Assembly: GCA_038868995.1 (NCBI GenBank)
Contig: JAWCRZ010000001.1
Location: 34,269-98,268 of the forward strand
DNA from: Candidatus Woesearchaeota archaeon
GTDB lineage: Archaea; Nanobdellota; Nanobdellia; Woesearchaeales; ARS49
Direction of reading: 5' to 3'
DNA: 64,000 nt
Within the stretch, counting starts at the first letter, position 1; every line of letters begins with the position of its first letter. The notes below the pieces were generated by a model. The model saw only the letters and a list, made by a program, of their open reading frames with translations, was not told where the DNA came from and did not search any database. The position numbers and the translations under genes were made by a program. Below, piece by piece: positions 23,497 through 57,872 of this stretch.

Positions 23497-24630
23497 ATGA
23501 AAAAACCTTTGGCATATTACGAAGCAATAGCCACGCTGACTGGCTGTATTATTGGCGCTGGTATTCTTGGAATTCCGTATGTTGTTGCACGTGCCGGCTT
23601 CTGGACAGGAATGCTTGTTATTGTTGGCTTGGGTCTTGTTACTTTGTTGGTGCATTTGCTGATTGGCGAGATAACATTGAGAACGAATAAGTGCATGCAG
23701 CTTGCCGGGTATGCTGAGAAATATCTTGGCTGGAAGGGCAAGTATTTGATGACCACTTCTATGGTCATAGGTATTTATGGCGCTTTGATTGCCTACACCA
23801 TTGGGATTGGGCAGAGCGTTCAGGCAATTCTCGGAGGTAATTACTGGCTTTGGGCTTTATTGTTTTATGCTATGATGGGTTGGTTGTTGTATGGAGGAAT
23901 TGGGATGCTTGCACAGTCGGAATTGTTGATGGAAACAGTTAAGTTTTTGATTTTTACTGCTATTCTGGTTATGCTGTTTTCTTCCCCTCATTTTTTTGCT
24001 GAGAGGTTTGTCGGGTTTGCCTGGGAAAGGTTATTGTTTCCGTTTGGAGTTGTTTTGTTTGCCTACATAGGCACTGCTGCTATTCCGGAAATTCGGGAGG
24101 AGATGAAAACGTGTAAATTGTTTACAAAACGCGCAATTATTATCGGTTCTTTGATTCCGATTTTTGTTTATGCTTTGTTCACAGCAGCCGCTGTTGGTGT
24201 CACTGGAATTGGCACAACTGAGGTTGCAACCATTGGGCTGGGAATGGTTATTGGTGGGTTTGGGTCTGTGCTTCTGTATGCATTTGCAATCCTTGCAATG
24301 GGAACTTCTTTTCTCGCGTTGGGATACGCATTGAAAGAAATGTATGTTGTTGATTTCCAGCTTAAGCATTTTGAGGCATGGGCGTTGACTTTAGCTGTGC
24401 CTTTGTCATTGCTTGTTGCTGGTGTGCAGTCGTTTGTGAAAACTTTAGAGGTTGCTGGGGTTTTCGCAGGTGGGATTGCAGCCATTACTGTTGTTTTTAT
24501 GCATATAAAGGCGAGGAAGCGTTCTGAGAGAAATCCGGAATTTATTGTTAGAATTAATTGGCTCGGATATGGTGCTGTTATTGCCGTTTTTGCAATCGGC
24601 ATAGTATACGAATTATTTCTTTTTCTGTGA
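23497..24630 (+). CDS. Amino-acid permease (aromatic amino acid / APC superfamily)
   Basis: GCIIGAGILGIPY; about 11 TM segments; FAY...AIPEI. Confidence 0.88.
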   Translation: MKKPLAYYEAIATLTGCIIGAGILGIPYVVARAGFWTGMLVIVGLGLVTLLVHLLIGEITLRTNKCMQLAGYAEKYLGWKGKYLMTTSMVIGIYGALIAYTIGIGQSVQAILGGNYWLWALLFYAMMGWLLYGGIGMLAQSELLMETVKFLIFTAILVMLFSSPHFFAERFVGFAWERLLFPFGVVLFAYIGTAAIPEIREEMKTCKLFTKRAIIIGSLIPIFVYALFTAAAVGVTGIGTTEVATIGLGMVIGGFGSVLLYAFAILAMGTSFLALGYALKEMYVVDFQLKHFEAWALTLAVPLSLLVAGVQSFVKTLEVAGVFAGGIAAITVVFMHIKARKRSERNPEFIVRINWLGYGAVIAVFAIGIVYELFLFL

Positions 24631-26967
24631 GCGGATGCTCCAGACAATCAAAATGAGGGCTGCAATTGCAACTGCAAGCGCAATGGTCGGCTGTATGCGT
24701 GGCGGTATCAAATGTTTCTGAACCCTGAGCAGTACTGTGTTGCTTGCTACGAATCCGCCTTTGCCGTCGTCTGCGCCAAATTTGACGCGCTCTTCGCCTG
24801 TCCAGCCTGTTTTAGGCGTCATGAAAACAGTGCTGCCGATAATGTCTATTGAAACGTGTTCTGTTTTTGACACTGTGAATGTCAGTTTGTCGCCGTCCGG
24901 GTCTTTGAAATAATTGCCGAGGTCAAGTGTGTGCACGTGGTCTTGCTGCCATACTTGCGGTGGAATGCCGTGCGCGATGGTGCCGTGCGATGGAATGAGG
25001 GCTATGGCAACGGCCATGAGCAGGCCGACGCCGATAAATCCCCAGAAAGGTTTGTCTGTTGGCAGTTGTTGCACGCGTGCATAAATGCTGTACGTGCCGT
25101 GCCGGTCTATGTCTGCTGTAATGTATATTGAGTTCTTGTCTTCGCCTGATTTTTTGAATGGAACTGTGCTCCAGGTCTGGTTTGCGTAGCGTGCCAGTCG
25201 GAAATCATCAAGCGCAACCTGTTTTCTTGAAAGCCATTTCTTTGGTATGCTGAACGTTGCCCTTATTGATGTGACATCCTCAGTGACGTTTGTCTTGATG
25301 TGCATTGTTTGGTATACTGCCGCTGATGGGGCGACACGTGCGCGTGCTTTCCTTATCTGCAGCTTGAGATTTTTGATTGATTTTTCTGGCGTGATTGTGA
25401 GCAGTGTCAATCCCTTTTTCCAGCCGTGAACGGTTAGCGCGTGTTTTTCTATTGCATTCTTCCAATGAATCCTTATAACTCGCGAGCGTGCGGCCTTTTT
25501 GGCAAGGAAAATAACGGCTAATATTCCTATGCCAAGCAGGACGTATGCGCCGTTTGGAGCGATTATCGCCCATAATGATGCAAGAAGTATAATCACAATG
25601 ATGCCAAGTATGAGCATGCCGATTTTTGCGCGTGGGGCCTTCTTCTTGCCAATTACCAGGTCTTTCCTGGCGACCATATGGTAGTCCTTTTTGATTTCTT
25701 TTTCTGCCTTGCGTTGCATTTGTTTTTTGATGCGTTCTATCTCTGCACGCTTCCGCTCTGCTGCTTTGCGCTGCAGCTCAAGTTTTTTTCTGAGAAGTTC
25801 CGCGCGCTTTTGTTCGCGTGCTTTTTTGCGCGCTTCGCGTTTTTCTCTCATTTTGCGCATTTTTTCCTTGAATGCCGGGCTTCTGATGTATTTTACAAAA
25901 TAGTATGCCCCGACGATTGCTGCTGCAATTACTACAATGCTTCCGATGAAGAGTGCAGGGTTGCGCTCAAAGAGTGTTGCCGGCTTGAGGATAATTATGA
26001 TGTCTTTGCTGTATTGGATGCCTGTCTGTTCAACAGTTGCAACAAGTGTTGCCGTGTATGTTCCTTTTCGTATTTTTTCTGTTGGCATTAGGCGCAGTGA
26101 AAGTGTTTTTTTCTGGCCTGGGTTTAATGATACTTTTTCTGGTGAAATGCTTGCCCATGGGACTCCTTCAACTGATACTGTGTATCGTGTTATCCTGTCT
26201 CCTGTGTTCTCAAGTGTTATCTCTGCTGTGCTGTCGACATAGTCGGTTCTTATCCTGTTTACTCCTTCTGCGAGAATTGGAATGTCTGTTGCCTTTATGA
26301 TAAGTTCAAGTGCGACTTCTTTTTTCTGGTTTGACTTGTCTGCTTCTACTGAAACAGTAAGCGGGAAAGTACCTGACTCTGTGCAGTCGTCTGGGGTAAC
26401 AGATACTATAATGTCTTTGCGCTCATTACCTTGGAGGACAGCTGTTTTCTCGCTGACGTGAATGTTAGGATGGCCTTTTGCCCGTATGTTGTATATTTCG
26501 GTAAAATTGAGCGGGTTTTGAAGGGATAATGTGTAACCTGCTGTTTCGCACGGCGCGATTACTGCGCTCGTTTGTGAAATTGTGAGGTTGAGGTTGTCCG
26601 GCACTGCAACGATGACTTCCTGGATGAGTTGTTTTTCAACTTCCCCGTCGCTGAAGAACAGTTCTGTTGCATATGTGCCTGTCCTTACGTCGCAGGGTAT
26701 GTTGTAATAGGTGTTTACTATAGCGCTTTGCATCGGCTGCAGCGTAAAACTTATGGCTGAGAATGTGACGTAGTTGCTTGCGTCTCCGTCAACGCTTAAT
26801 GTGAATGTTGACGCAACATCCCTTGTGTTTTGGATTGTGACGTTGCGAACTGCAGAACCGCATGGCACAACATTGACCGTCATGTCGCCGAACGCATTGA
26901 AGTCCTGAGCGCTGACGCTCAGCAGAAATAAGGAAGCAATTAGCAAAAAAATGATTGTGCGCTGCAT
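24613..26967 (-). CDS. Multi-pass surface protein: Ig-like repeats, K/R coil, PGF-pre-PGF-like domain, cadherin-like domain
   Basis: Signal peptide; repeated 'TL.N.G....Y...V.G..W' Ig-like units; FSIPKKWL...RLARY..WSTVP; YFKDPDGDKLTF; five hydrophobic segments. Confidence 0.75.
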   Translation of the reverse strand: MQRTIIFLLIASLFLLSVSAQDFNAFGDMTVNVVPCGSAVRNVTIQNTRDVASTFTLSVDGDASNYVTFSAISFTLQPMQSAIVNTYYNIPCDVRTGTYATELFFSDGEVEKQLIQEVIVAVPDNLNLTISQTSAVIAPCETAGYTLSLQNPLNFTEIYNIRAKGHPNIHVSEKTAVLQGNERKDIIVSVTPDDCTESGTFPLTVSVEADKSNQKKEVALELIIKATDIPILAEGVNRIRTDYVDSTAEITLENTGDRITRYTVSVEGVPWASISPEKVSLNPGQKKTLSLRLMPTEKIRKGTYTATLVATVEQTGIQYSKDIIIILKPATLFERNPALFIGSIVVIAAAIVGAYYFVKYIRSPAFKEKMRKMREKREARKKAREQKRAELLRKKLELQRKAAERKRAEIERIKKQMQRKAEKEIKKDYHMVARKDLVIGKKKAPRAKIGMLILGIIVIILLASLWAIIAPNGAYVLLGIGILAVIFLAKKAARSRVIRIHWKNAIEKHALTVHGWKKGLTLLTITPEKSIKNLKLQIRKARARVAPSAAVYQTMHIKTNVTEDVTSIRATFSIPKKWLSRKQVALDDFRLARYANQTWSTVPFKKSGEDKNSIYITADIDRHGTYSIYARVQQLPTDKPFWGFIGVGLLMAVAIALIPSHGTIAHGIPPQVWQQDHVHTLDLGNYFKDPDGDKLTFTVSKTEHVSIDIIGSTVFMTPKTGWTGEERVKFGADDGKGGFVASNTVLLRVQKHLIPPRIQPTIALAVAIAALILIVWSIRSQKKK

Positions 26968-26996: not shown

Positions 26997-28220
26997 TTAG
27001 TAATACGTATCGGCTTGTTCCTTGCCGCGCAGGTGTCCAATGCCGATGATAATGCCAAGGATAACGAGCAGGACAACAAGCACTATTAGGATCACCTCAA
27101 ACACGCCTTTTGCTTTTGACTGCTGTGCTACGACATTCGCGGTCAGGGTGAGTTCCTGGCGATGGTCTCCTGACGCAACTGTTGCAATCAATGAGTGTGC
27201 GCCGCTTGGTGCATCCTTGCTGACCTGGACATTTACAAAAACGGTTTGTGTCTGGCCGGCTGGCACAACAAGCATACTGGTTGGTGTGATTGACACCGCT
27301 GCCCAGTCGGTACTTGGCACAATGACTGTGAATGTCTTGCTGGTTTTTCCTGCGTTCGTTACGGTAATGGGGAAAATGGCTGTCTGGCCACTGGCAACGC
27401 TCTGCATCTGGTTGCCCAGGGTGATGCTTGACTGCTGCCTGCTGTCTTCATTGCAGGTTTCATCCTCAAGAACGGTGATTGTGCGCCGTTCACTGACTTT
27501 TCTCTGCCGTTGTGAAAACTCAACATCTATAACTGCTTCATAATTGCCAGGTTTTGCGCATTTCGGTATTCTTATGAAAATCTCTTCCGTCTCCTCTTCT
27601 TCATCACCGTTGTCTATTTCATCGATGAAGTCACTGCCGCTTACTCCCAGTGCAGGAATTCCCACGGTGACTTTTACGTCATTCTGCCGCTTTTCACCCT
27701 TGTTTTCAACGCGGACTGTTGTCAGAAGCGCACTGCCTGCTCTGACAGCATTGTTCGGGCTGAAGACAACGTCATCAATTCGGAGCGCGTTGCGTGGAAC
27801 ATCAATTTTGAGGTTGTAGTTCGCAATGCGCTCGTCCCCAAAGCGGTCTGATATGATAACACGAAGTTTGTAATTGTCTTCATCGACGTTATCTGGAATA
27901 GTGATGTGGAGTTTCTTTACATAGGTGACGTTTGCGTCTGCGTCAAAAACAGGTGTTTTGTCTTCAATGTCGTCTATGTCATTGAATTCATAGCCAGAAA
28001 TGAACACGCGAACTTCTGCATTGTCAATATCAAATGTTGGTGTGAACTTGACACGTATTTCATATTCTTTCCCGCGTTCGAGTGATAGCCGGTTGATGGC
28101 ATTTTCATCAAGCGTTGTATCGTCAATTTCAACTTCGTCAAGCACTACTGGTAATGCTGTCGCTGATGCAATAACTGTCAGGAATAATGCCATTGCAATA
28201 AGTGCGTGTCTTGCCTTCAT
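26997..28220 (-). CDS. Secreted Ig-like-repeat (S-layer/CARDB-like) protein with C-terminal membrane anchor
   Basis: Signal peptide MKARHALIAM; three beta-sandwich-like units (VENKG, VTNAG); C-terminal TM. Confidence 0.8.
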   Translation of the reverse strand: MKARHALIAMALFLTVIASATALPVVLDEVEIDDTTLDENAINRLSLERGKEYEIRVKFTPTFDIDNAEVRVFISGYEFNDIDDIEDKTPVFDADANVTYVKKLHITIPDNVDEDNYKLRVIISDRFGDERIANYNLKIDVPRNALRIDDVVFSPNNAVRAGSALLTTVRVENKGEKRQNDVKVTVGIPALGVSGSDFIDEIDNGDEEEETEEIFIRIPKCAKPGNYEAVIDVEFSQRQRKVSERRTITVLEDETCNEDSRQQSSITLGNQMQSVASGQTAIFPITVTNAGKTSKTFTVIVPSTDWAAVSITPTSMLVVPAGQTQTVFVNVQVSKDAPSGAHSLIATVASGDHRQELTLTANVVAQQSKAKGVFEVILIVLVVLLVILGIIIGIGHLRGKEQADTYY

Positions 28221-28334
28221 TCTTATAACCCCCACATCTGTTTGCAGGACAATATCCTGCTATTAAAGTTTTTCTATTCTGGAGTAGTTTTACTATGTTA
28301 CTACCAAATAGTAAATACTATTATATAAATCTTT

Positions 28335-29402
28335 CTATTGGAAGATGACTTCCACATACCTGTGCTTGACACGGTGCAAGCTTCCGGAATCGATTGTTAT
28401 GCGAACAGGGTATTCCCCCGGCTGCGTGTCTTCTGGAAGGTCTACATAAATTGTTTTGCTGATGCGTTTGCCGACTGAAACGTCTTCTATCGGCCCTACG
28501 CTTGCGCGTACGCCTAAGTCGGGTATCGCGACAGCTGCTTCCAGGTTTTCTAGCTTCTCGTCACCATTGTTTTTGAATGAGATGGTCACTGGAACAACAT
28601 CACCTGCAAGAGCATCATATGCATTCGGTATTATAATTGCGCCGATGTGTATGCTGAGGCCGTCACCGTCATCTTCATCACTTTGACTGGGTGCCGGCGC
28701 TCCTCTTTCAACGACGTGCAGCAAAAAGCTTTCTGGCACGCCATTGCAGGTTACAATAACTTCCTCTGTTCCGGTAAAACCTGGGTTGAGGTCAAATATT
28801 CTGATATCGTCAGCTATGAAAAACAAATTGTAATGTGGTGAGGAACTGGCTATTGCAAAAACCAGTTCATCGCTGTCAGGGTCTGAGCATTTGTCAAACA
28901 CGTTTTCTTGTACAAGTGTTCCTGATGGGCTCCCTCTGAGTATTGTTACGTCTGAAAGGTCTTCCCATACCGCGTCATGTTCTGATGGGAATCCAGGTCC
29001 TGGTCCTGGTGTTGGCCCGCCTGGTATGCCTCCGCCCGGGAATCCTGGGAATCCACCATCGAAGCTGCTCCCTGTGCTGTCGCCGAATGAACCGGGTATG
29101 CCGGTTCCGGCGGGCGTTCCGCCGCTGAATGCGCTTGGGTCTGTGCCGGCTGACGTGCCGCCTGAGAATGCACTTGGGTCAACTCCGCCAAACGAGCCGC
29201 CTGAAAATCCACTTGGGTCAACTCCGCCAAACGAGCCGCCTGAGAAGCTGCCTGGGTCGGTGCCACCGAATGAGCCGCCGCTGAATCCGCTGCCGTCAAA
29301 TCCGCCGAATGAGCCGCCTTCAAATGCAACAATAAGCGGCGCTGCTATCAGCGCGGCTATAACGATGAGAGAAACAAACGGTAGTGTTTTGCTTGGTTTC
29401 AT
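28335..29402 (-). CDS. Secreted protein with Gly/Ser/Phe 13-aa repeats, cadherin-like and CARDB-like domains
   Basis: GSFGGxDPSxFSG repeats (39-bp unit); DPDSDELVF; SFKNNG..LENL C-terminal domain. Confidence 0.8.
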   Translation of the reverse strand: MKPSKTLPFVSLIVIAALIAAPLIVAFEGGSFGGFDGSGFSGGSFGGTDPGSFSGGSFGGVDPSGFSGGSFGGVDPSAFSGGTSAGTDPSAFSGGTPAGTGIPGSFGDSTGSSFDGGFPGFPGGGIPGGPTPGPGPGFPSEHDAVWEDLSDVTILRGSPSGTLVQENVFDKCSDPDSDELVFAIASSSPHYNLFFIADDIRIFDLNPGFTGTEEVIVTCNGVPESFLLHVVERGAPAPSQSDEDDGDGLSIHIGAIIIPNAYDALAGDVVPVTISFKNNGDEKLENLEAAVAIPDLGVRASVGPIEDVSVGKRISKTIYVDLPEDTQPGEYPVRITIDSGSLHRVKHRYVEVIFQ

Positions 29403-29436: not shown

Positions 29437-30447
29437 TTAATCCTCGACAAATGTGTCGATGTCATTTAGGTCTTTCTTCTTTTTCTTTTCTGCAGCGGCT
29501 TTTTCTTCAGCTGCCTTCTTCTCAGCGGCAGCCCTCTTTTCTGCAGCGGCTTTTTCTTCAGCTGCCTTCTTCTCAGCAGCTGCCTTTGCTTCCGCTTCTG
29601 CCTTTGCAGAATCATCGGCTTTTGATGGTGCAGCACTTTCTTTCTTGTCTTCCTTTATTGTTGGCTCAAGGGTGTTCATCTTGTAGAGAACTGCTGCCCT
29701 GATTACTTTGCCCTTTGAAAGTCCTTCTGTGTAGCGTCTTTCTGATATGCTGTCAACAGAGTTTGAAAGCTCTTTTGTGCCGTCTTCGCGTGCCGGAAAA
29801 TACTTTGCCAGCTTTTCCGGATTGTCAATCCATGTCACACTGTCGTACAGCTCGCGCTGTTTTTCAGGAGTGTCGAGTTTTGTTTCACGCTTGTAGCCCC
29901 AGCTGTCCTTGGTTACGCGTTTTGCAAATGCCTTGTTCGCGTCAAAGCCGAGTTCTTTTGCATGTTCTGTAAGCTTTCCTTCAAGCTTCATGTGGTCGTT
30001 TTCGTAGACGCCAAACACTCTTATGCTTGATGCCGGGTTGCCTGGCTGTTCCTGCCAGACAACAATTGCATATGCTTCCAGCTGATTGCTGTTTTTCAGG
30101 TCTGCAATGTATTTTTTGCCTTCTTTTGCAATTGCTGTTGCTTCTGCATTCACTGCTTTGCTGATTATATCTTCTCCTGTAACTGCTTTTGCAAGTTCTT
30201 CTGCGCGTGCAACAGTTGTTTCAATTGTGGAAATTTCATCAGGGTTCAGAATACCGTCTTTCTTGACGTTGTTTAATTGTTCACGAAGGTAGACCGTTTT
30301 TTCTTGGTTTCCCTTGCATGCATAGTCGTCTTTTGCCGTGCAAACTTTGTCTTCAAGTTTAGAATCTTTTTTTGCAATTGGCACACAACCAGTGATACCT
30401 GCTGCGTAAATAAGTCCTGCTGCAATTGCACCATAAATTCCTTTCAT
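29437..30447 (-). CDS. Lipoprotein with C-terminal AAEKK (TolA-like) repeats
   Basis: Start MKGIYG after GGGGGG RBS; ITGC lipobox; AAAEKKAAEEKAAAEKR repeats. Confidence 0.8.
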   Translation of the reverse strand: MKGIYGAIAAGLIYAAGITGCVPIAKKDSKLEDKVCTAKDDYACKGNQEKTVYLREQLNNVKKDGILNPDEISTIETTVARAEELAKAVTGEDIISKAVNAEATAIAKEGKKYIADLKNSNQLEAYAIVVWQEQPGNPASSIRVFGVYENDHMKLEGKLTEHAKELGFDANKAFAKRVTKDSWGYKRETKLDTPEKQRELYDSVTWIDNPEKLAKYFPAREDGTKELSNSVDSISERRYTEGLSKGKVIRAAVLYKMNTLEPTIKEDKKESAAPSKADDSAKAEAEAKAAAEKKAAEEKAAAEKRAAAEKKAAEEKAAAEKKKKKDLNDIDTFVED

Positions 30448-30512
30448 TGTAATCCCCCCGATATGAGCGTCAAACGCTTTATATCTACTGTAGAGTGGCA
30501 CTAATATTTAAA

Positions 30513-30554
30513 CCTTGCGAAGCGTGCTTCGCAAGGCCCGCCAAGCTTTGCTTG
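30513..30554 (-). terminator. Double hairpin downstream of the beta-barrel-like gene
   Basis: CCTTGCGAAGC-GT-GCTTCGCAAGG (11 bp) and CAAGC-TTT-GCTTG; on the minus strand followed by TTTAAAT. Confidence 0.55.
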
Positions 30555-30567
30555 ACACATTGGTTTG

Positions 30568-31677
30568 CTAAAAGTCAAACTTGATGACTATGCCGCCAGC
30601 AATGCCGCCTTTTGTTTTGTCTTTGTCAATGTTTTGACCGGGATCATCGATTCTTTGCTCATTGCCCTGATAACCTACAGTGCCTGAAATGCTGAAATTC
30701 CTGCATGGAGAGTATGTTAAAATTGCGCCTGCGCCCAATGTTTGAGTTCTTGTTTCTCTCAGCGATATGCCACTTTCAGTATTCAGTACTTTGTATGCGA
30801 CATATGGAGTTAAACTCCAGATGTTTCCCCTCCCGTTTTCATCGCGGTTGTTCAGGGTGAAAGACGGCCCAATTCTGAATTGGAGAGTGTCATCTGTTTC
30901 AAGCTTGCCAAATTTGTTTCTGTTCCAGTAAGCTTCTGCAAGCAGGTCGACGATGAATTCTGCATCTCTTTCGTCCTGCCGCCTGTCGAATTCAAGCAGC
31001 CCTGACTGCTTTGCTTTTTCGCGGTGCAGTGCAACTCTTCCTTCAATTCCTGCAAAAGTCGTGTCATAGTTGCCGTCAATTTCGAAGCCGGAAAGCAGTT
31101 CTCCGTCGAATTTTCCGCTTCCTTTGTAGAATTTTCCGAGCAGTTTGTAGCCGTGCTCGCGTGACGCAACTCCTAATTCAGCTCCATAGATAAAACGGTG
31201 TGCATCCATATCGATTTCTTCCTTGAATGTGCTGTGCTCGTAGCCGAGTACCGGCCTCAGGAAAAGCTCAAATTCTCTGTTGCTCAGCGCATACCATCCA
31301 AGTGCTGCTATGCCCCTGATTGAATTGACTTCAAGTTCGCTTCCGTCAATGTTGTCCCATTTTTCGAAGACATCCTGAATGCCAAAATAAGGCCTCAGGT
31401 TTCCGGTAATATACTCAAATTGTGCGCTGCCTGAAAATCTGTCAGCCAATGGCTCGTGCTCTGCTTTTATCTGAAGCGAGCCGCGCAGTATGTCGTCAAG
31501 CTTTCGTGAAACTGCTGCGCCGTCGTCAGCAAGGGAAACGCTTTTTTTCTCTGTCTTTTCAGCGGAAGCCGGTTTGTCGTCCTCATTGAAGCGGTCTTGT
31601 GCGTATGCCTGTGATGCAAAAAAAGAACCAAGAAGTGTTGCGCCTGTAAGAATTGTTTTCTTGAAAATGTTCATCAT
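30568..31677 (-). CDS. Secreted protein with outer-membrane beta-barrel-like sequence
   Basis: Sec signal ending AYA; many amphipathic alternating strands; terminal GGIVIKFDF. Confidence 0.65.
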   Translation of the reverse strand: MMNIFKKTILTGATLLGSFFASQAYAQDRFNEDDKPASAEKTEKKSVSLADDGAAVSRKLDDILRGSLQIKAEHEPLADRFSGSAQFEYITGNLRPYFGIQDVFEKWDNIDGSELEVNSIRGIAALGWYALSNREFELFLRPVLGYEHSTFKEEIDMDAHRFIYGAELGVASREHGYKLLGKFYKGSGKFDGELLSGFEIDGNYDTTFAGIEGRVALHREKAKQSGLLEFDRRQDERDAEFIVDLLAEAYWNRNKFGKLETDDTLQFRIGPSFTLNNRDENGRGNIWSLTPYVAYKVLNTESGISLRETRTQTLGAGAILTYSPCRNFSISGTVGYQGNEQRIDDPGQNIDKDKTKGGIAGGIVIKFDF

Positions 31678-31818
31678 AACCCCCATTATATAATGTATTT
31701 CATCGTCTTAGCATTGGTGATATTTAAAACTTTCTGTCTGTTGCTATTCTGCAGTAGCAACTTAAAGAGCGCGTTGCATTGCACAAACTTTTTAAGCAGT
31801 GCTCAGGTTGAGCACGTC

Positions 31819-34800
31819 ATGGAAGAGCAGAGTGGGTCTGGGCAGGGTTCTCATCACATAGCGCAACATATATCTACCGCAAAGAAAGCGGTTGAATTTG
31901 CCAAAAAGCATGCATTTGTATTGACCCTATTGTTAGTTCTGGCTTTGCAGTTTGTTCCGAGCCCGCATGGCAATTATCCGTGGGGCGGTATATGGCTTCG
32001 TTTGCAGCCAAAGGATTTGCCGATTGCTGATTCTGCTGCTGCATCGAGTGTTGAAAATTTTGTTCGCCAGCAGGCATCCATCATTGCAAACCAGCAGTAT
32101 CCAAATCTGCCTGACGAGAACAAGAAGAAAGTTGTCAACGATTTGATGAAGAAGTTGAAGGAAGAGGGCAGGGACCAGCTTGCTGTCGAGGAGAGAAAGC
32201 TTGCTCAGCAGATACGCGACCATTACCAGTACGAATCTGATGGCAGGAAATTCCCGTATATGCCTGATATTGATCCATATTTCTATTTGAGGTATGCGCG
32301 TAATTTGGTTGAGAAAGGCCATACATACGATATCATCAAAGATGGTGTTCCGTGGGATAACCACATGATTGCTCCTTTGGGGACTGTTGCTGATAAGAAC
32401 TGGCACCCGTATGTTGCTGTTATAATGTTCAGGATTGCCAGGATTTTTGACAGTGGCATCACTTTGATGCAGTCGTCTAATTATTTTCCGATTGTGTTTA
32501 TTTTTTTCTCGCTTATTTTTGTATTCCTAATCGCGCAGAAGGTTTCGGGCAACATTGGCGGGTTTTTTGCGGCAACTGTGCTGGCTGTTCTTCCCGCAGT
32601 GATGGGAAGGACTCCTTGGGGTCATTTTGATACTGATGCGTATAACGTTTTTTTCCCGGCTGTTGTTGTTTATTTGCTGATTGTTGCCCTAAGTGCATCA
32701 ACGATGAAACGGCAGGCATTGTTCGGAGCGTTCACTGGTCTCGCTATCGCAATCTATGCAAACTTGTGGTCTGGCTGGTGGTTCTTGTTTGATTTTGTGC
32801 TTGGCGCGTTTGCTGTCGCTGTTGTTTTTGAAATTGCGCTACATTTGCGAGCGGGTGTAAAAACGCTCTGGCGGAATTCGCGGATGAAGAAGTTTGTTGT
32901 TGTCGGCACTGCCTTTTTCTTTTCTTCAGCGGTTTTCTGCTCACTGACAATAGGGTTTGGTATTTTTGCGGAAAGCGCGTTTTTTAGCGCCTTGGGATTT
33001 ACATTGATTAAGAGCGCTGCCTTGCCAAACTTGTGGCCGAATGTTTACACGACCGTTGCTGAGCTGAATCCTGCTGATTTCAAGCAGGTTGTTGCTTCTG
33101 TTGGTGGAACACTGCCTTTTGTCGTCGCAATTATAGGAATTATCCTGCTTTTGTTCAGACGTGACGAGCATGGAAAGATTGATATCACATATAGTGCATT
33201 GCTCGCGCTGTGGTTTGTCGGCACGATTTATGCCTCTTTGAAAGGATTGCGTTTCACTTTGCTTCTCGGTCCTGCTTTTGCTGTTGCGTTTGGTGCTGCT
33301 GCCGGCTTGCTTGCGCAGCGCGTTGGTTCTTTTGGAGAGAGAAGTTTGCATATGAGCAAAACAGTTACTAATATTATCGTGATTGTTGTTATGGGCGTGA
33401 TTATTGTTAATCCTGCTTCTGTGGGCGCTCATATGGTGCAGAATTCTTATGGCGCTGTTGTTAACGATGTTCCTATTATGAACGATGCTTGGTGGAATGT
33501 TTTGACGAAAATTCGTGATAACAGTCAGCCAAATGCTATTGTAAACTCCTGGTGGGACTTTGGCCATCATTTCAAATATGTTGCTGACCGTGCAGTAACT
33601 TCTGATGGCGCAGTGCAGAATTCTCCGCAGGCGCACTGGGTTGGTCGCGTTCTTCAGACGTCTGACGAGAAGGAAGCGGTTGCCATTTTGCGCATGCTTG
33701 ACTGCGGCGCGAACAGTGCGTATGATTTTGCGCTGAATTCTACTCAGGACCCTGTTGTGTCTTTTAAGCTGGTTAAGCAGATTATAATGGAGGATCGAGA
33801 TGCTGCCGCTCAGACCGCAAAGACAGCTGGTGTGTCTGAGGAGATTTTGAAATATACACATTGTGAACCGCCTGAGAACTTCTTTATTGTTAGTGCCGAC
33901 ATGATTGGCAAGGCGGGTGTCTGGTCGCATTTCGGGCTTTGGACTTTTGATAAGGCAGAAGTGTGGCAGAAATGGAAGAATCTTCCGGAAAGCGAAGCCG
34001 TACCGCAGATGGCAAGACGCTTTAACTGGACTGAAGATGAGGCAAAGCGCATTTATAACGAGGCGAACGCGCTCGCGTCAGAAGAGGCAGCGAATGCATG
34101 GATCAGCCCATGGCCTGGATATGTTGCAACTGATACCAGTCCTTGTTCTGTTTCAGGTGATACAGCAAAATGCGGCAACATTGCTGTGAATTTGACAAGC
34201 AAACGCTCGGAGGTTCGCTTGCCGCAGGGTGTTGCTCCCGCTGGCAAGCTTGTTATTTACAACCGGCAGGGGGACAAGCAGGTTGTTGAGCAGGCTGGAG
34301 GAAATCCTGGCTTGATGGTAGTTATGTGGCCGACTGGTGGTGGTGTAAGTGCGATTGCCGCTTCTGTTGAACTTGCTGACAGCATGTTTACAAGGATGTA
34401 TTTCATGAAAGGTCTTGGCTTGAGACATTTCAGGCCTTTTGCTGAAGATTATCAATTGATTGGGGGCAATATTTACGTGTACAAGGTTGACTGGGAGGGC
34501 GCTGAAAAGTATATTCCTGCTGGTCTTGAGCCGAAGAGCACTGTTGAGCCGGGCGCGCAGGTATTGCTTAGCTATATCGGTTGGACTGATGACTATAAGG
34601 TGTTTGATTCCAGCATTCCGCAATGGAGGGAGCTTGGAGTCACTCCTGATTCGCGGTTTGAGGATTATGAAGTTAGGCCGTTGCCGGTTGTTATCGGTCA
34701 GGGCAAGATTATTCCCGGCTTTGAGAAGCGTATTCAGGGAATGAAGAAGGGTGATGTTAAGACGATTGTAATTCCGCCTGAAGAGGCGTATGGCGTTGAT

Positions 34801-34866
34801 CCCGGAAAGCACGTTTTGGGCAACAAGACGCTTCACTTTAAGATTAAAATTGAAGATGTCCAATAG
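31819..34866 (+). CDS. aglB: Oligosaccharyltransferase AglB/STT3 fused to a C-terminal FKBP-type PPIase
   Basis: DIDPYFYLR, GHFDTD, TVAEL, WWDFG; C-terminal SYIG...FDSS...IGQGKIIPGFE..IQGMKKG..K.IVIPPEEAYG. Confidence 0.92.
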   Translation: MEEQSGSGQGSHHIAQHISTAKKAVEFAKKHAFVLTLLLVLALQFVPSPHGNYPWGGIWLRLQPKDLPIADSAAASSVENFVRQQASIIANQQYPNLPDENKKKVVNDLMKKLKEEGRDQLAVEERKLAQQIRDHYQYESDGRKFPYMPDIDPYFYLRYARNLVEKGHTYDIIKDGVPWDNHMIAPLGTVADKNWHPYVAVIMFRIARIFDSGITLMQSSNYFPIVFIFFSLIFVFLIAQKVSGNIGGFFAATVLAVLPAVMGRTPWGHFDTDAYNVFFPAVVVYLLIVALSASTMKRQALFGAFTGLAIAIYANLWSGWWFLFDFVLGAFAVAVVFEIALHLRAGVKTLWRNSRMKKFVVVGTAFFFSSAVFCSLTIGFGIFAESAFFSALGFTLIKSAALPNLWPNVYTTVAELNPADFKQVVASVGGTLPFVVAIIGIILLLFRRDEHGKIDITYSALLALWFVGTIYASLKGLRFTLLLGPAFAVAFGAAAGLLAQRVGSFGERSLHMSKTVTNIIVIVVMGVIIVNPASVGAHMVQNSYGAVVNDVPIMNDAWWNVLTKIRDNSQPNAIVNSWWDFGHHFKYVADRAVTSDGAVQNSPQAHWVGRVLQTSDEKEAVAILRMLDCGANSAYDFALNSTQDPVVSFKLVKQIIMEDRDAAAQTAKTAGVSEEILKYTHCEPPENFFIVSADMIGKAGVWSHFGLWTFDKAEVWQKWKNLPESEAVPQMARRFNWTEDEAKRIYNEANALASEEAANAWISPWPGYVATDTSPCSVSGDTAKCGNIAVNLTSKRSEVRLPQGVAPAGKLVIYNRQGDKQVVEQAGGNPGLMVVMWPTGGGVSAIAASVELADSMFTRMYFMKGLGLRHFRPFAEDYQLIGGNIYVYKVDWEGAEKYIPAGLEPKSTVEPGAQVLLSYIGWTDDYKVFDSSIPQWRELGVTPDSRFEDYEVRPLPVVIGQGKIIPGFEKRIQGMKKGDVKTIVIPPEEAYGVDPGKHVLGNKTLHFKIKIEDVQ

Positions 34867-52996: not shown

Positions 52997-54370
52997 TTAT
53001 TTAAGCAGCCCTTTCAGCAATTCCTGTACCACTTGTGCTGATGCGGTTCCTTTTGATGCCCGCATGACTTGTCCTACGAGGAACATTAGCGATTTCTGCT
53101 CGCCTTTTTTGTAATCTTCAACTGCTTTTTGATTTTTGGAAATAACATCCTTGCAGATGCTTTCAAGTGCTTCTTCATCCGTTACCATTGTCAAACTCTT
53201 TTCCTTGACATAAGCTGAAGGTGAGAATTTCTTTTCTGCAAGTTGTTCTATAAGCCGTTGTGCCACGCGATTGTTTATTTTTTTGTCAGCGAACAGCTTG
53301 AGTAATTCAATTAATCCTTCCGCATCAAATGCCGTTTCTTTAAGTGATTTTTTCTTGTCATTCAGCAATCTTAGAACTTCTCTTCTTACCCATCGTGACG
53401 CCAATATCGGATCGACTTTTTTTGCTATTTGTTCGAACAACACTGCAACTTCAAGGTCTGCTGCAATAATTCTAGCATCATTTTCATCTATTTTCCATTC
53501 TTTTACCCAGCGCAGTGCGCGTTGTTCTCCAAGCTCAGGTATGCTTTCCTGCACTTTGCGTATCCATTCCTTTGAAATCTCGAAAAGCGGCAGATCTGGC
53601 TCCACTATGTAGCCGTAGTCCTCTTCCTGCTCTTTGCTGCGCATGTGAAATGTTATCCCTTTGTCCGCATCCCATCCGCGCGTCTCTCTTTTGACTTCCT
53701 GCTGTTTCTGTCTTTGGACTTCATAGTTCAAGGCTCTTTCAATTTCTTTGAATCCAGTTATGTTTTTTATCTCAACACGCGCGTAATTTCTTTCTTTGAT
53801 GGAAACATTTGCGTCCGCCTTGATTATACAAGTATTTTCGTCAAAAATGCCGAGATAGCCGAGAACATTCATTAGTTTTTTCATGAATTCGCGTGCTTCT
53901 GCCGGCGAGCTCATGTCAGGCAGGGTAACTATCTCGCATAGTGGAATTCCGCTTCTGTTGTAGTCAATAAGGGAGCTTCCTGCTTCGTGTATTAATGCGC
54001 CTGGGTCTTCTTCTATGTGTACGCGTTGTATTCTGATGACTTTTTTGTTGTCAAGCACGATTTGCCCGTTGCTGCCGAGCGGGACTTCATACTGTGTTAT
54101 TTGGAAATTTTTGGCAAGGTCTGGATAGAAGTATGTTTTTCGTGAAAAAACTACTGTAGGGGAGATGCTGCAGCCGAGTGCGAGTGCGAGCTTTGTTCCG
54201 TATTCAAGTGCTGCTGCGTTTAATACGGGTTTGCTTCCAGGATGTCCTAAGCATGTCGGGCAGATGGCGGTATTTGGCTCTGTTGTTTCTGTCGGGCAGC
54301 TGCAGAATAGTTTGGTTTTTGTTTTCAACTGCACATGGATTTCCAGTCCGATGACTACGTCATTTTCCAT
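52997..54370 (-). CDS. gatB: Asp/Glu-tRNA amidotransferase subunit B
   Basis: IGLEIHVQL..TKLFC, RKTYFYPDL, EEDPG, NRSGIPLCEIV; YqeY-like tail. Confidence 0.97.
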   Translation of the reverse strand: MENDVVIGLEIHVQLKTKTKLFCSCPTETTEPNTAICPTCLGHPGSKPVLNAAALEYGTKLALALGCSISPTVVFSRKTYFYPDLAKNFQITQYEVPLGSNGQIVLDNKKVIRIQRVHIEEDPGALIHEAGSSLIDYNRSGIPLCEIVTLPDMSSPAEAREFMKKLMNVLGYLGIFDENTCIIKADANVSIKERNYARVEIKNITGFKEIERALNYEVQRQKQQEVKRETRGWDADKGITFHMRSKEQEEDYGYIVEPDLPLFEISKEWIRKVQESIPELGEQRALRWVKEWKIDENDARIIAADLEVAVLFEQIAKKVDPILASRWVRREVLRLLNDKKKSLKETAFDAEGLIELLKLFADKKINNRVAQRLIEQLAEKKFSPSAYVKEKSLTMVTDEEALESICKDVISKNQKAVEDYKKGEQKSLMFLVGQVMRASKGTASAQVVQELLKGLLK

Positions 54371-55769
54371 GTGCTTTTGCCACCTGTATGATTTTTTGTT
54401 CCGCAAAATGCGGGCCTGTTATCATCATGCCCACGGGCAATCCATTGCTTTCTCCGCATGGGATTGAAATGTGAGGCAGTCCTGCTAAGTTTGGTGATAC
54501 TGTAAGAATGTCCATGGCATAATTCTGCAAAGGCGTTAACTTTTTTATCTCTTCAAATGTAGGTGCTGTAATGGGCATTGTTGGCGTGATTAAAACGTCA
54601 ACTTGTTTGAATGCGGCCGCGTATTCTTGAAGTATTTTTGTCCTGATTTGTGCTGCTTTTTTGTAGAATGCGTCTCTGTATCCAGCCATTCTTGCAAAAG
54701 TGCCGAGCAATAATCTTCTTTTTGCCTCTTCGCCGAAATTGTTTGTGCGCACTCGTGAAAAATATTCATTATATGTTCCTGTCAGCTGTTCTGACGCGCC
54801 GTATCTGATGCCGCAGTATTTTGCAAGGTTGGTGCTTGCTTCGGTCATTGCAAGGGTATAGTATGCTGCCAGTCCGTATTTCATTGAAATTGGCAAGCTT
54901 ATTTCAATTCTTCGCGCTCCTTTTTGCTCCAGCTGGTAGATTGCTTCGAGAACGTTTTTTCTGACTTTGTTGTCTATGCCTTCCGCAAACGCTTCCTTAA
55001 CAATGCCGATTTTAAGCCCATTAATGGCACCGGGCGTGTCGAGCGCTGGAACTGGCAGTTCTGCTGATGTGCTGTCGTGTGCGTCTTTTCCTGAGATTAT
55101 TTCCAATAATAGTGCTGCATCATCAACCGTGAGCGCCATCGTGCCGATTTTGTCCAAGCTGTTTGCGTAATCAATTAGGCCATAGCGCGAAACGCGGCCG
55201 TAGGTTGGGCAGATTCCTACGACACCGCAGAATGCTGCAGGGTCTGCTATGCTGCCGCCTGTGCTTTCTGCCAATGCAAGATGTGGAAATGTTGCTTTTT
55301 TTGTTAGTCCTGCTGCTCCTCCTGAGCTGCCTCCGGTTGCTCTTTTTCTGTCAATCGGGTTTAATGGTTTTTCATATCCCTTTCCTACATTGGTTGAAAA
55401 TCCTCCAAATCCGAATTCGTCCTGTACTGTCTTGCCGAGAATTATGGCGCCTTCGCGCAGGCATTTTTCTACTGCTGTTGCGTTAAACACTGGCTTGTAT
55501 GTTTTCAGTATTGCGCTGCTTGCCGTGCTTTCTATATTTTTAACGCAGATGTTGTCTTTCACCGAGATAAGCACGCCGAATAATCTGCCGTGTGCAGTGC
55601 CTTTCTTTACTTGTTCTTGCAGTTCTTTTGCGCGCTCTGCTGCGTCTGCAAATGATGAGATGTAGCGGTATTCTTTGTTGATTTTTTCTGCTTCTTCGAG
55701 CGCTTTTTCTGTGTGTGTTACTATGTCAATCTTTCCTGCTATTGCGTCTTTGACGAATTGTTTTATCAT
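54360..55769 (-). CDS. gatA: Amidotransferase subunit A
   Basis: SVKDNI, GGSSGG, TGGSI amidase signature; RRLLLGTF. Confidence 0.95.
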   Translation of the reverse strand: MIKQFVKDAIAGKIDIVTHTEKALEEAEKINKEYRYISSFADAAERAKELQEQVKKGTAHGRLFGVLISVKDNICVKNIESTASSAILKTYKPVFNATAVEKCLREGAIILGKTVQDEFGFGGFSTNVGKGYEKPLNPIDRKRATGGSSGGAAGLTKKATFPHLALAESTGGSIADPAAFCGVVGICPTYGRVSRYGLIDYANSLDKIGTMALTVDDAALLLEIISGKDAHDSTSAELPVPALDTPGAINGLKIGIVKEAFAEGIDNKVRKNVLEAIYQLEQKGARRIEISLPISMKYGLAAYYTLAMTEASTNLAKYCGIRYGASEQLTGTYNEYFSRVRTNNFGEEAKRRLLLGTFARMAGYRDAFYKKAAQIRTKILQEYAAAFKQVDVLITPTMPITAPTFEEIKKLTPLQNYAMDILTVSPNLAGLPHISIPCGESNGLPVGMMITGPHFAEQKIIQVAKAHGK

Positions 55770-56056
55770 AGTACTTTTGGTCCTTTGAAGTACGTGTTTT
55801 TTTTGTGAGGAGTGAGAGAAAGTGCTTTTTCCCTGTCAAGGCATTGCTCTGGCTTGTCTTCGCGTGCTACATTTTTGACTGGGATTGGGTGGAAGCTTGG
55901 CTCTACATTTGTCGTCTCAACTTCTGCGAGTTTTTCAAATGCTGCGAGAATGTCTTTCATTTCTGCTGCAAATTTTTTTATTTCCTCTTCTTTCAGGTTG
56001 AGACGTGCGTTTGCAGCTACTCTTTTTACCAGTTCGGGAGTGATATCCATAACCAT
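55766..56056 (-). CDS. gatC: Amidotransferase subunit C
   Basis: VAANARLNL..EE...F..EM..IL; YFKGPKVL. Confidence 0.92.
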   Translation of the reverse strand: MVMDITPELVKRVAANARLNLKEEEIKKFAAEMKDILAAFEKLAEVETTNVEPSFHPIPVKNVAREDKPEQCLDREKALSLTPHKKNTYFKGPKVL

Positions 56057-56099
56057 GACAGCGGGATTGGGAGGTGTAGTCCCCTTCGGTATGCAATGA

Positions 56100-57872
56100 C
56101 TATTGTTTTTTTGCTATGTCAAGCTTGAGGTGCAGCTCTTTGAGGAAGTCATCCGTCCATTCCTGCGGGCTGCCGTCAAGTGGGTTTTCTGATGCTTTGT
56201 TGCGTGGGAAGGCAATTGCTTCGCGTATGTCATTTAGTCCGCACATTAGTGCAACTAACCTGTCAAAGCCGAGTGCGATGCCGCCGTGTGGCGGCGCGCC
56301 GTATTTGAATGCCCTCATTAAAAAGTCAAATCTTTTTTCTGCTTCTTCGTATTCAAGTCCTACGACGTGCAGTACTCGTGCTTGTACGTCTTTTCTGTGG
56401 ATTCTTATGCTCCCGCCGCCCAATTCCACTCCGTTTAATACGCAGTCGTATGCTTTTGCCCTGACTTTTCCGGGCGCTGTTTCAAGCTTGTCCATATCCT
56501 CATCTTTTGGGCTTGTAAAAATGTGATGGCGTGCCTGCCAGCTGCTGGTTTCTTCGTTCCACTCATAGAGTGGGAAGTCAATTATCCAGAGGAAATTGTA
56601 CGTGCCTTCTTTGATTAACCCTAATTTTTTTCCGATGTGTAATCTAACTTGGCCGAGCCCGTTTGCTGCTTTTTCAAATTCGTCTGCTGCAAATAGTAAA
56701 AGGTCTCCTTCCTCTGCTCCTGTTGCTGTTATTAGTTGTGCCTGAACGTGTTGAGAGAAGTATTTGACTATGCTGCTTTCAAGCAGATTTTTGCCTGCCA
56801 CTTTCATCCATGCAAGCCCGGGAAGCTTATACAATTTTGCAATTTCAATGAGTTCTTCTATTTCTGTGCGGGTGAATTTTCCTGCACCTTTGGCATTTAA
56901 ACAGAACACTTTTCCTTTTTTGTCTAATACCGACTTGAATACCCCGAAATCAGAGTGTTTTACAATGTCAGATACATCCGCAAATTCAAGCCCGAAGCGT
57001 ACATCTGGTTTGTCACTGCCATACCTGCTCATTGCCTCGTGGAACGTCATTCTTGGAAATGGTGTTTGTATATCTATGTTCAAAACTTTTTTGAAGATGT
57101 GCTTGAGCAGTCCTTCCACAATTGTTTGGACGTCTTTTTCTTCAACAAAACTCATTTCAAGGTCTATTTGTGTGAATTCTGGTTGCCTGTCTGCACGCAA
57201 ATCTTCATCGCGCAGGCAGCGTGCGAGTTGGAAATATCTGTCACAGCCGGAGACCATAAGCAGTTGTTTGTAAATTTGCGGTGATTCTGGCAAGGCGAAG
57301 AATTTTCCCGGGTGCACTCTGCTCGGCACTTTGAACACGCGTGCTCCTCCTGGTGTTGTTTTTACGAGCATCGGTGTCTCTATTTCCATAAATTTCTGGC
57401 TTGTGAGATATTCGCGTGTTGCCTGCGCTGCTGTATGCCTCATCAGCAGGCGTTGTTGCATTGTTGGCCTGCGCAAATCGAGATATCTGTATTCCAGCCG
57501 CATCTCTTCATTTGCAACAGTCCTGTCATCAACTTCAAAGGGCGGTGTTTCTGCCTGGTTTAGCACTTCTAAGCTGTCAGAAATTACTTCAATCTCACCG
57601 GTCACAATTTTTTTATTCTCCATCCCTTGCGGCCTTAATCGCACGTGACCCGTGACTTGCAATACCCATTCCCTGCCAATGTGCTGTGCTTTTTCGTGTG
57701 CCTGCTTGTTGTGGGACGGGTCAAAAACAACTTGTGTTATGCCGTATCTGTCGCGCAGGTCTATGAAAATGAGCCCTCCATGGTCTCTGCGCGTGTGTAC
57801 CCAGCCGCAGAGAACCGCCTCTTTCTGAAGGTCTTTTTTCGTTAGTTCCCCGCAGGTATGCGTTCTTTTCAT
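56100..57872 (-). CDS. aspS: Aspartyl-tRNA synthetase, bacterial-type with GAD insertion, probably non-discriminating
   Basis: RTHTCGEL, RRDHGGLIFIDLRD, CLRDEDLRADRQPEFTQIDLEMSF, GAPPHGGIALGFDR; 590 aa. Confidence 0.95.
   Translation of the reverse strand: MKRTHTCGELTKKDLQKEAVLCGWVHTRRDHGGLIFIDLRDRYGITQVVFDPSHNKQAHEKAQHIGREWVLQVTGHVRLRPQGMENKKIVTGEIEVISDSLEVLNQAETPPFEVDDRTVANEEMRLEYRYLDLRRPTMQQRLLMRHTAAQATREYLTSQKFMEIETPMLVKTTPGGARVFKVPSRVHPGKFFALPESPQIYKQLLMVSGCDRYFQLARCLRDEDLRADRQPEFTQIDLEMSFVEEKDVQTIVEGLLKHIFKKVLNIDIQTPFPRMTFHEAMSRYGSDKPDVRFGLEFADVSDIVKHSDFGVFKSVLDKKGKVFCLNAKGAGKFTRTEIEELIEIAKLYKLPGLAWMKVAGKNLLESSIVKYFSQHVQAQLITATGAEEGDLLLFAADEFEKAANGLGQVRLHIGKKLGLIKEGTYNFLWIIDFPLYEWNEETSSWQARHHIFTSPKDEDMDKLETAPGKVRAKAYDCVLNGVELGGGSIRIHRKDVQARVLHVVGLEYEEAEKRFDFLMRAFKYGAPPHGGIALGFDRLVALMCGLNDIREAIAFPRNKASENPLDGSPQEWTDDFLKELHLKLDIAKKQ

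Follow-up and report, generated by a model that had tools for sequence, protein, structure and literature searches.

Why would an archaeon encode a protein that looks like a bacterial outer-membrane porin, and in which membrane could such a protein sit? The question is raised by one gene in a stretch of 64,000 nucleotides from a Candidatus Woesearchaeota archaeon (assembly GCA_038868995.1, contig JAWCRZ010000001.1, positions 34,269 to 98,268 of the forward strand; hereafter the window), which a preliminary description, made from the DNA letters alone, had read as an outer-membrane beta-barrel-like protein. Porin-type transmembrane beta-barrels are regarded as a hallmark of diderm bacteria and of their organelle descendants, archaea are not known to make them, and Omp85 proteins are regarded as the universal insertase of such barrels. 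We conclude that the gene very probably encodes a native archaeal membrane-type barrel. We tentatively favour the fuller reading that this barrel is exported by the general secretory (Sec) pathway and works as a pore or anchor in the archaeon's own envelope, together with a lipoprotein encoded beside it.

The barrel gene and its predicted fold

The gene and its parts, with the basis of each assignment in brackets, are as follows:

30568-31686, minus strand: barrel gene, 372 amino acids, coordinates including the stop codon (open reading frame (ORF) list and translation)
31721-31728, minus strand: TTTAAATA box, archaeal TATA-like, upstream of the barrel gene (sequence read)
31600-31677, minus strand: Sec-type signal peptide, residues 4-29 (MMNIFKKTILTGATLLGSFFASQAYA, then QD; read by eye)
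31489-31599, minus strand: charged N-terminal extension of the mature protein, residues 30-66 (AlphaFold2 and composition)
30571-31488, minus strand: predicted 14-stranded beta-barrel domain, residues 67-372 (AlphaFold2 strands, Foldseek, belt statistics, Pfam OMP_b-brl at E 8e-4)
30571-30603, minus strand: last strand, residues 362-372 (IAGGIVIKFDF), resembling the bacterial beta-signal (survey of C-termini in the family)

The reading frame proposed in the preliminary description is present, and its start at 31677 (MMNIF) is one of three candidate ATGs, the others lying at 31686 and 31674; aligned homologues begin with MSI..FFKK or MNIFKK. The TTTAAATA box is located 35-47 nucleotides upstream of the candidate ATGs, inside a 132-bp divergent spacer that the gene has in common with aglB. 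The guanine-plus-cytosine (GC) content of the gene is that of the surrounding window, and a whole-genome search found it to be single-copy, with no paralogue. The signal peptide consists of KK, a hydrophobic core and an AYA/QD site, and by-eye reading of alignments finds the n-, h- and c-regions and the AxA-like site kept across 39 family sequences. Behind the signal, the 37-residue extension is 48% charged; AlphaFold2 predicts disorder up to approximately residue 47 (predicted local distance difference test, pLDDT, below 50 for residues 1-47) and a short helix at residues 56-66, directly before strand 1. The approximately 305 residues that come next are rich in Gly and in aromatic side chains and end in GGIVIKFDF. 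A cleavable Sec-type signal followed by a charged N-terminal segment is what had been described from the letters alone, and both are borne out.

Given an alignment of 16 sequences, AlphaFold2 folds residues 67-371 into 14 long strands with short turns (mean pLDDT 75.5; predicted template-modelling score, pTM, 0.75), the only long loop being residues 224-243, which is modelled with low confidence. A Foldseek search against the PDB gave 193 matches at E ≤ 0.001; the 50 listed ones are outer-membrane barrels without exception. The leading matches are the 14-stranded CymA, OmpG and FadL (E 6e-9 to 1e-6, probability 1.0, target-normalised TM-score up to 0.61), with identities of 9-15% to this class. 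Profile searches of PDB sequences with narrow and wide barrel profiles yielded nothing significant (E 0.45-0.49), so that the resemblance to these channels is at the level of the fold. The outer-membrane-type barrel of the preliminary description is in this way upheld by prediction.

At the level of sequence families, Pfam OMP_b-brl (PF13505) matches only the last 110 residues of the query, at E 8e-4 and with 20.1 bits, short of the cut-off of 28.7. At E ≤ 0.01, the model matches nine of 37 family members, and one of them lies above the Pfam cut-off (33.5 versus 28.7 bits). The barrel gene is the sole OMP_b-brl match in the whole genome, and among control genomes matches were obtained in diderm bacteria only, with none in four archaea or in monoderm bacteria. 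NCBIfam returned no match to the query. The barrel is probably related, at great distance, to the bacterial OMP_b-brl superfamily.

The hydrophobic belt was assessed on sequence. For each AlphaFold2 strand, we took the alternating 9-residue window of highest mean hydropathy in a 37-sequence alignment spanning 15-68% identity, a procedure that uses the AlphaFold2 strand boundaries yet is independent of the closed-barrel model. The best window falls at the termini-side end in 14 of 14 strands: odd strands begin and even strands finish with it, as a single continuous belt requires. In 2000 within-strand shuffles, the number of consistent strands was 6.8 on average and 13 at most, and the mean outward hydropathy of the belt windows is 1.96, compared to 0.90 ± 0.13 in the shuffles. 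Hydropathy is +1.84 over the 75 outward belt positions (3% charged), -1.05 over the 61 inward positions (29% charged) and -1.49 in the crown, i.e., the rest of the strands (39% charged); these values are equal in the close and the wide alignments. Judged from these sequences, the barrel has a belt approximately 9-11 residues in height near its termini; the lumen is polar, and the strands continue into a charged part at the opposite end. The peptides originally quoted as strands of alternating polarity are all present (FSGSAQFEY 84-92, LFLRPVLGYEH 141-151, FIYGAELGV 165-173, FAGIEGRV 211-218, WSLTPYVAY 290-298, LGAGAILTY 317-325, FSISGTVGY 331-339 and GGIVIKFDF 364-372), and each overlaps, mostly exactly, a belt window found in the AlphaFold2 strands. 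A soluble fold lacking a hydrophobic belt, the outcome that the preliminary description had set against its own claim, was looked for as well, and the belt was found in every strand.

The family survey extends the terminal amphipathic strand ending in Phe, pointed out earlier for the query: in 32 of 39 members the chain ends in F or W, hydrophobic residues occupy positions -2, -4 and -6, and a polar one stands at -1. Outward belt positions have a conservation of 0.69, below that of lumen and crown, and keep their hydrophobic character but not residue identity. Because it is hydrophobic character alone that is conserved, the belt fits lipid solvation better than a specific protein interface. 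In the 37-sequence alignment, the far-side crown loops are the most conserved part of the barrel (0.90, versus 0.66 for the termini-side loops). Charged segments lie on both faces, with the N-terminal 37 residues and the loop 224-243 on one, and the whole crown on the other.

Could the barrel be an AlphaFold artefact of a shallow alignment, and the protein in reality a soluble or wall-bound protein rich in beta-structure? With 16 sequences behind the model, a mean pLDDT of 75, a query score below the Pfam cut-off (20.1 versus 28.7 bits) and PDB sequence searches lacking a significant match, some over-prediction would be conceivable. However, the belt, consistently placed in 14 of 14 strands, charged at 3% of the 75 outward positions and held at 15-68% identity, argues against it, as do the conserved terminal aromatic residue, the nine family members that match OMP_b-brl independently, and the 193 PDB matches with nothing but outer-membrane barrels among the 50 listed. 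We therefore consider such an artefact very improbable.

Distribution, gene order and rate of evolution

The genome comprises 0.94 Mb in 20 contigs and is 98.55% complete with 0.21% contamination. The gene lies in a block with the order glycosyltransferases, AglB-FKBP, barrel, lipobox protein, Gly-rich protein, CARDB protein, 785-amino-acid protein and permease. This order is shared by several contigs, L004 among them, including one of 160 kb from NCBI (L001) and a 72-kb Logan contig, and it is also found in the whole genomes of four more distant congeners (L022-L025), with one local inversion of aglB. Overall, the same gene order is present in 14 of 15 congeneric species. The contigs concerned measure 160-336 kb where they carry barrel sequence homologues, and among loci with conserved flanking genes they reach 969 kb.

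A word-indexed search retrieved 16 barrel homologues of approximately 370 residues each, at 47-100% identity and none of them annotated by Pfam. An exhaustive HMMER profile search of 1.84 billion representative proteins gave 27 clusters of 175-424 residues (23 of them of 330-424 residues), with no bacterial family among them. With a narrow 16-sequence profile, the gene looked genus-specific, being detected in 12 of 15 species of the genus, in 0 of 62 genomes from 28 other genera and in 1 of 301 genomes of the order. This is a sensitivity artefact, because a profile built from 37 sequences detects members in 32 of 77 genomes of the taxonomic family, spread over 9 of its 29 genera, i.e., eight genera besides its own. 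Where listed, the matches sit 2-4 kb from the CARDB locus, with two weak exceptions on other contigs. Outside the taxonomic family, the same 37-sequence profile found no member in 296 sampled genomes of the order.

In nine loci inspected in other genera, the interval from aglB to the Gly-rich/CARDB genes is usually occupied by an ORF of 306-406 residues with a signal, mostly followed by a lipobox protein; L065 lacks a clear barrel candidate, and no lipobox was detected in L063. Seven of these ORFs have 8-13 amphipathic belt segments, as many as the query, while most neighbouring ORFs have 0-7, and a wider hidden Markov model detects four of them at 36-69 bits. Two barrel-like ORFs carry a lipobox of their own: L064:9016-10128 (AFGGC), with profile support at 69 bits, and L057:8919-9983 (LALGGC), which at E 0.48 is barrel-like by position, belt count and C-terminus only. 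In these two, the N-terminus of the barrel would therefore be lipid-anchored and tethered to the producing cell. Taken across the sequences at hand, the barrel gene appears as a fixed component of an envelope cluster throughout the taxonomic family.

A bacterial-type fold and C-terminal motif might also point to contaminating or chimeric bacterial DNA, or to a very recent transfer of a bacterial porin gene, and two related metagenome-assembled genome records bear the odd label Methanosarcinales. This explanation is refuted by conserved synteny, as far as the assemblies show. The gene order in 14 of 15 congeneric species, the profile matches in eight other genera and the contigs of up to 969 kb all stand against it, as do the archaeal-type TATA box, the native GC content and the 27 matching clusters without a bacterial family. 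Because gene order is conserved across many genomes, contamination or chimeric assembly is excluded to the same extent, and the probability that we leave to it is negligible. The view of the preliminary description that this is not simple contamination is upheld, and the chimeric assembly that it named as a possible refutation was not found.

Sequence identities to the window genes at three distances are as follows:

Close congeners: flanking genes 70-88%, barrel 55-62%, lipoprotein 58-75%
Distant congeners: flanking genes 54-84%, barrel 25-30%, lipoprotein 24-30%
Other genera: flanking genes 26-67%, barrel lost to tblastn, lipoprotein with one partial match (27% over 38%)

Barrel and lipoprotein are the fastest-evolving genes of the 17-kb conserved block and diverge together, the exception being the close congener L004, in which the lipoprotein, at 75%, is near the flanks. 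The patchy detection of the barrel family by profiles is explained by this much faster divergence relative to the flanking genes. The fixed place in an envelope cluster, the very fast evolution of the pair and the co-evolving lipoprotein partner all go beyond what had been read from the letters.

Such a pace, with barrel and lipoprotein down to 25-30% identity where flanking genes retain 59-84%, fits an arms race or host switching, and with it the idea of a host-directed pore. The exported barrel would then sit in the membrane of a partner cell at a contact site, with its termini on the archaeon's side, serving as an uptake channel for nutrients or lipids that the lipoprotein delivers or holds. 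The most conserved part, the crown loops, would in that case lie on the far side of the target membrane. By contrast, the gene is found among housekeeping envelope genes at a position fixed across genera, and the two apparent counterparts with their own lipobox, of which one is profile-supported (L064), would stay on the producer. Moreover, large charged segments on both faces of the barrel make unaided insertion from outside costly. We regard a host-directed pore as a serious possibility, albeit an unlikely one.

The partner lipoprotein and the neighbouring genes

Immediately downstream of the barrel gene lie the following features:

29437-30447, minus strand: partner lipoprotein gene, 336 amino acids from the ATG at 30447 (homologues, alignment, AlphaFold2)
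30505-30536, minus strand: second TTTAAATA box (30505-30512) and perfect 11-bp inverted repeat CCTTGCGAAGC / GCTTCGCAAGG (30513-30536; sequence read)

The partner has the lipobox ITGC and is predicted by AlphaFold2 to form three helices and an alpha/beta domain (core pLDDT approximately 90), beyond which come a 45-residue helix rich in Ala, Glu and Lys and a conserved DIDTFVE tail. The fold has no match in the PDB (best E 0.4), and the protein belongs to no Pfam family. A candidate identity as TolA was rejected, since the NCBIfam score of 20 bits (cut-off 213) reflects low-complexity Ala/Glu/Lys matching and not homology. Nor did any result of the analysis speak for a TonB-like function of the lipoprotein, and none is proposed. 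Every congener examined has a lipobox gene next after the barrel, as do most of the other-genus loci, and it is firmly supported that barrel and lipoprotein form a module inside the envelope gene cluster. The orthologues in L022 and L023 lack the helical spacer. In L022 (10622-11200), the partner is shortened to 192 residues and has a twin-arginine motif (RRDILKGAAAAG) ahead of the lipobox, and export of the partner thus appears, to judge from the signal sequences, to switch between the Sec and twin-arginine translocation (Tat) pathways within the genus. The inverted repeat is located downstream of the barrel stop codon, ahead of the lipoprotein gene, and abuts the TTTAAATA box of the latter at the position expected for the transcription factor B recognition element (BRE); it might terminate transcription of the barrel gene or serve a regulator as an operator over the BRE. 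As a separate observation, many exported proteins of this genome, encoded on many contigs, have lipobox-type signals (...LLAAC, ...LLVAC, ...FLAAC), which suggests heavy use of lipid-anchored surface proteins.

The remaining genes of the block that could be assigned in the window are listed here:

28335-29402, minus strand: Gly-rich repeat protein with immunoglobulin (Ig)-like (NPCBM_assoc) domains (Pfam; conserved position after the lipoprotein gene)
26997-28235, minus strand: CARDB/NPCBM_assoc surface protein with a C-terminal membrane anchor, like those of a surface layer (S-layer) (Pfam)
24613-26967, minus strand: 784-amino-acid multidomain Ig-like surface and membrane protein, the last of the block (Pfam, synteny)
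31819-34866, plus strand: AglB (STT3) oligosaccharyltransferase fused to an FKBP domain (Pfam STT3 7e-33, FKBP_C 1e-16)

The barrel gene thus lies between archaeal surface genes and aglB, as first described. The aglB gene is divergent from it and is followed by glycosyltransferases; the C-terminal fusion to FKBP, a peptidyl-prolyl isomerase, is kept beside the barrel in L001 and L004. A genome search found the CARDB surface protein in 77 of 77 genomes of the taxonomic family. Sequons for N-glycosylation number 0-0.6 per 100 residues in all block genes and are uninformative. The window as a whole is archaeal, with topoisomerase I (TIGR01057, 1e-220), PolX, HerA-like ATPases, AglB/STT3-FKBP, a row of glycosyltransferases and CARDB/NPCBM_assoc proteins.

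Three further observations concern the neighbourhood. In many relatives (L025:10592-11671, L056-L061, L064 and L065), a geranylgeranyl-reductase-like flavin adenine dinucleotide (FAD) protein (MxxVVVGAGPAGS...) is encoded between aglB and the barrel, a gene that is absent from this place in the window. The N-terminal half of the Gly-rich protein is an array of repeats with a species-dependent unit, GGSFGGxD in the window and WSGDSFAVDDNS or GGWNDEGWPAGNDA in the L022-L025 orthologues, while the Ig-like C-terminal half is conserved. Finally, a bacterial-type aspartyl-tRNA synthetase (NF001750, 2e-249) is encoded beside GatA and GatB at 52997-57872 of the window (minus strand), in this archaeal genome.

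The company of S-layer-like CARDB proteins and N-glycosylation genes invites another explanation, namely a pore in a protein sheath: in a surface lattice poor in lipid, it would mostly be contacts with other proteins that bury the belt, with the lipoprotein helix as a spacer to the cytoplasmic membrane. A partner that combines a membrane anchor with a 45-residue helix would suit such an arrangement, as would a single barrel family per genome and the fact that lipid-transport genes for a second membrane (MlaD, LptD_N) were not found. However, an outward belt conserved at 0.69, and in hydrophobic character only, fits lipid better, and the spacer is missing in the L022 and L023 orthologues. We think a sheath pore improbable.

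The membrane of the barrel and its known relatives in form

For the reading that we favour, in which barrel and lipoprotein work in the archaeon's own envelope, the following course may be proposed. After Sec export and cleavage behind AYA29, the chain would fold into a barrel outside the cytoplasm, independently of Omp85 and the beta-barrel assembly machinery (BAM), and its belt would be buried in a lipid layer of the cell's own envelope. The polar, Gly-rich lumen would form a water-filled channel in the size class of OmpG and CymA, which the N-terminal helix may gate. The lipoprotein, lipid-anchored at the cytoplasmic membrane, might dock, tether or help to assemble the barrel, in many members by way of the 45-residue helical spacer and the conserved acidic tail. 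This reading is favoured because of the fixed, housekeeping-like position of the gene, its single copy, the own lipobox of some apparent orthologues, and an anchored partner with a helical spacer.

Several points weigh against it. Searching the 98.55%-complete genome for Omp85/BamA (PF01103) gave no match at E ≤ 1, while the same search found its match in Thermotoga as a control; the preliminary description, which had noted that archaea lack BAM, is thereby confirmed for this genome. The best hit to Skp/OmpH in the genome scored 14 bits, below the cut-off, and MlaD and LptD_N/OstA were not found. No second barrel turned up in the whole-genome OMP_b-brl search or in two crude all-ORF scans, for a terminal F or W and for amphipathic belt counts, which are weak heuristics, the F/W scan having missed the barrel gene itself. 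One candidate, C3:22577-24514 (645 residues, ending WFIDLF), was set aside, since by eye it resembles an enzyme of the transglutaminase type that ends in a hydrophobic tail. With no biogenesis genes and no second barrel detected, any real outer membrane would contain just one family of barrels and would be built by no known route. In addition, the fast evolution of the pair is more typical of proteins at a host or virus interface than of housekeeping pores, the crown loops appear from the alignment to be the most conserved part, the reverse of the exposed loops of bacterial porins, and the structural support for the barrel is prediction throughout. In a cultivated Micrarchaeon, moreover, what had been described as an outer membrane proved to be an S-layer, and the cell has one membrane (PMC11329633). 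That organism is from a different phylum, but its example makes a true second membrane less likely a priori. The broadest form of the own-envelope reading, that a whole family of Woesearchaeota-type DPANN archaea builds a lipid-containing outer layer and inserts a single barrel into it without Omp85, with the co-evolving lipoprotein as assembly factor or tether, is doubtful.

A genome without detected outer-membrane biogenesis genes or other barrels also suits a host-directed pore, and in a related context there has been discussion of a porin-like family from a bacterial predator, which may have a relative in Altiarchaeales (PMC12228718). The three fates considered in the preliminary description, i.e., a porin for the archaeon's own layer, insertion into a host by the host's BAM, and self-insertion, have in common a membrane-type barrel, and this part is supported by prediction. 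Of the three, insertion by a host's BAM is the weakest, because BAM operates from the periplasm, charged segments lie on either face of the barrel, and two apparent counterparts have their own lipobox.

What is new here is the barrel family, its fixed place beside AglB across the taxonomic family, the co-evolving lipoprotein and the inverted loop conservation. Our literature search brought up no account of porin-like barrels from Woesearchaeota or from other DPANN archaea, save one sentence in a 2025 paper on a possible PopA-like relative in Altiarchaeales (PMC12228718). A natively encoded and positionally fixed barrel in an archaeon without detected Omp85 means that either some DPANN archaea may possess a lipid layer that has so far escaped notice, together with a novel mode of barrel assembly, or they may place barrels in the membrane of another cell. 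If the barrel belongs to the archaeon's own layer, the archaeal domain would have arrived at outer-membrane-type barrels independently and by a route that does without BAM; if it is destined for a host membrane, it would provide a molecular handle on how obligate symbionts tap their hosts. Since both barrel and lipoprotein are small and single-copy, the membrane question is directly testable.

Among known systems, several invite comparison. Beta-pore-forming toxins build their barrel from hairpins of several subunits after a soluble state, whereas here one chain would supply all 14 strands, with no soluble-domain scaffold. Likewise, PF13505 models small barrels of approximately eight strands, as opposed to the 14 predicted for the archaeal family. 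The pore protein of Ignicoccus is small and helical. Ignicoccus, Altiarchaeum and 'ARMAN' are listed as double-membrane archaea (PMC8871954) and as such are precedents for a second archaeal layer, but none of them is known to have a demonstrated beta-barrel porin, and for 'ARMAN' the supposed outer membrane of the cultivated relative is an S-layer (PMC11329633).

A likeness in gene arrangement is seen with the toga of Thermotogae, whose porin Ompbeta and coiled-coil anchor Ompalpha are encoded side by side. There, too, a barrel gene stands beside the gene of a membrane-anchored long-helix protein, and the outer layer is largely protein. Thermotoga has BamA, while none was found in the archaeal genome, and Ompalpha is anchored differently, not being a lipobox protein; the likeness is one of arrangement.

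In structure, the nearest counterparts are CymA (4d5d), OmpG (2iwv, 2f1c) and FadL (1t16). The archaeal barrel differs from all three in having no detectable sequence homology to them, an archaeal genome without BamA and a dedicated lipoprotein partner. Its loops are predicted to be short on both faces, hence it would lack a gating loop of the OmpG type (the long L6 in OmpG). CymA and FadL have an N-terminal plug or hatch; in the archaeal protein, a predicted helix (56-66) precedes strand 1. Strand number and general barrel shape agree with all three channels, and the archaeal protein has in common with them a Sec signal, a belt near the termini, an extension of the strands beyond the membrane on the far side and a terminal aromatic residue.

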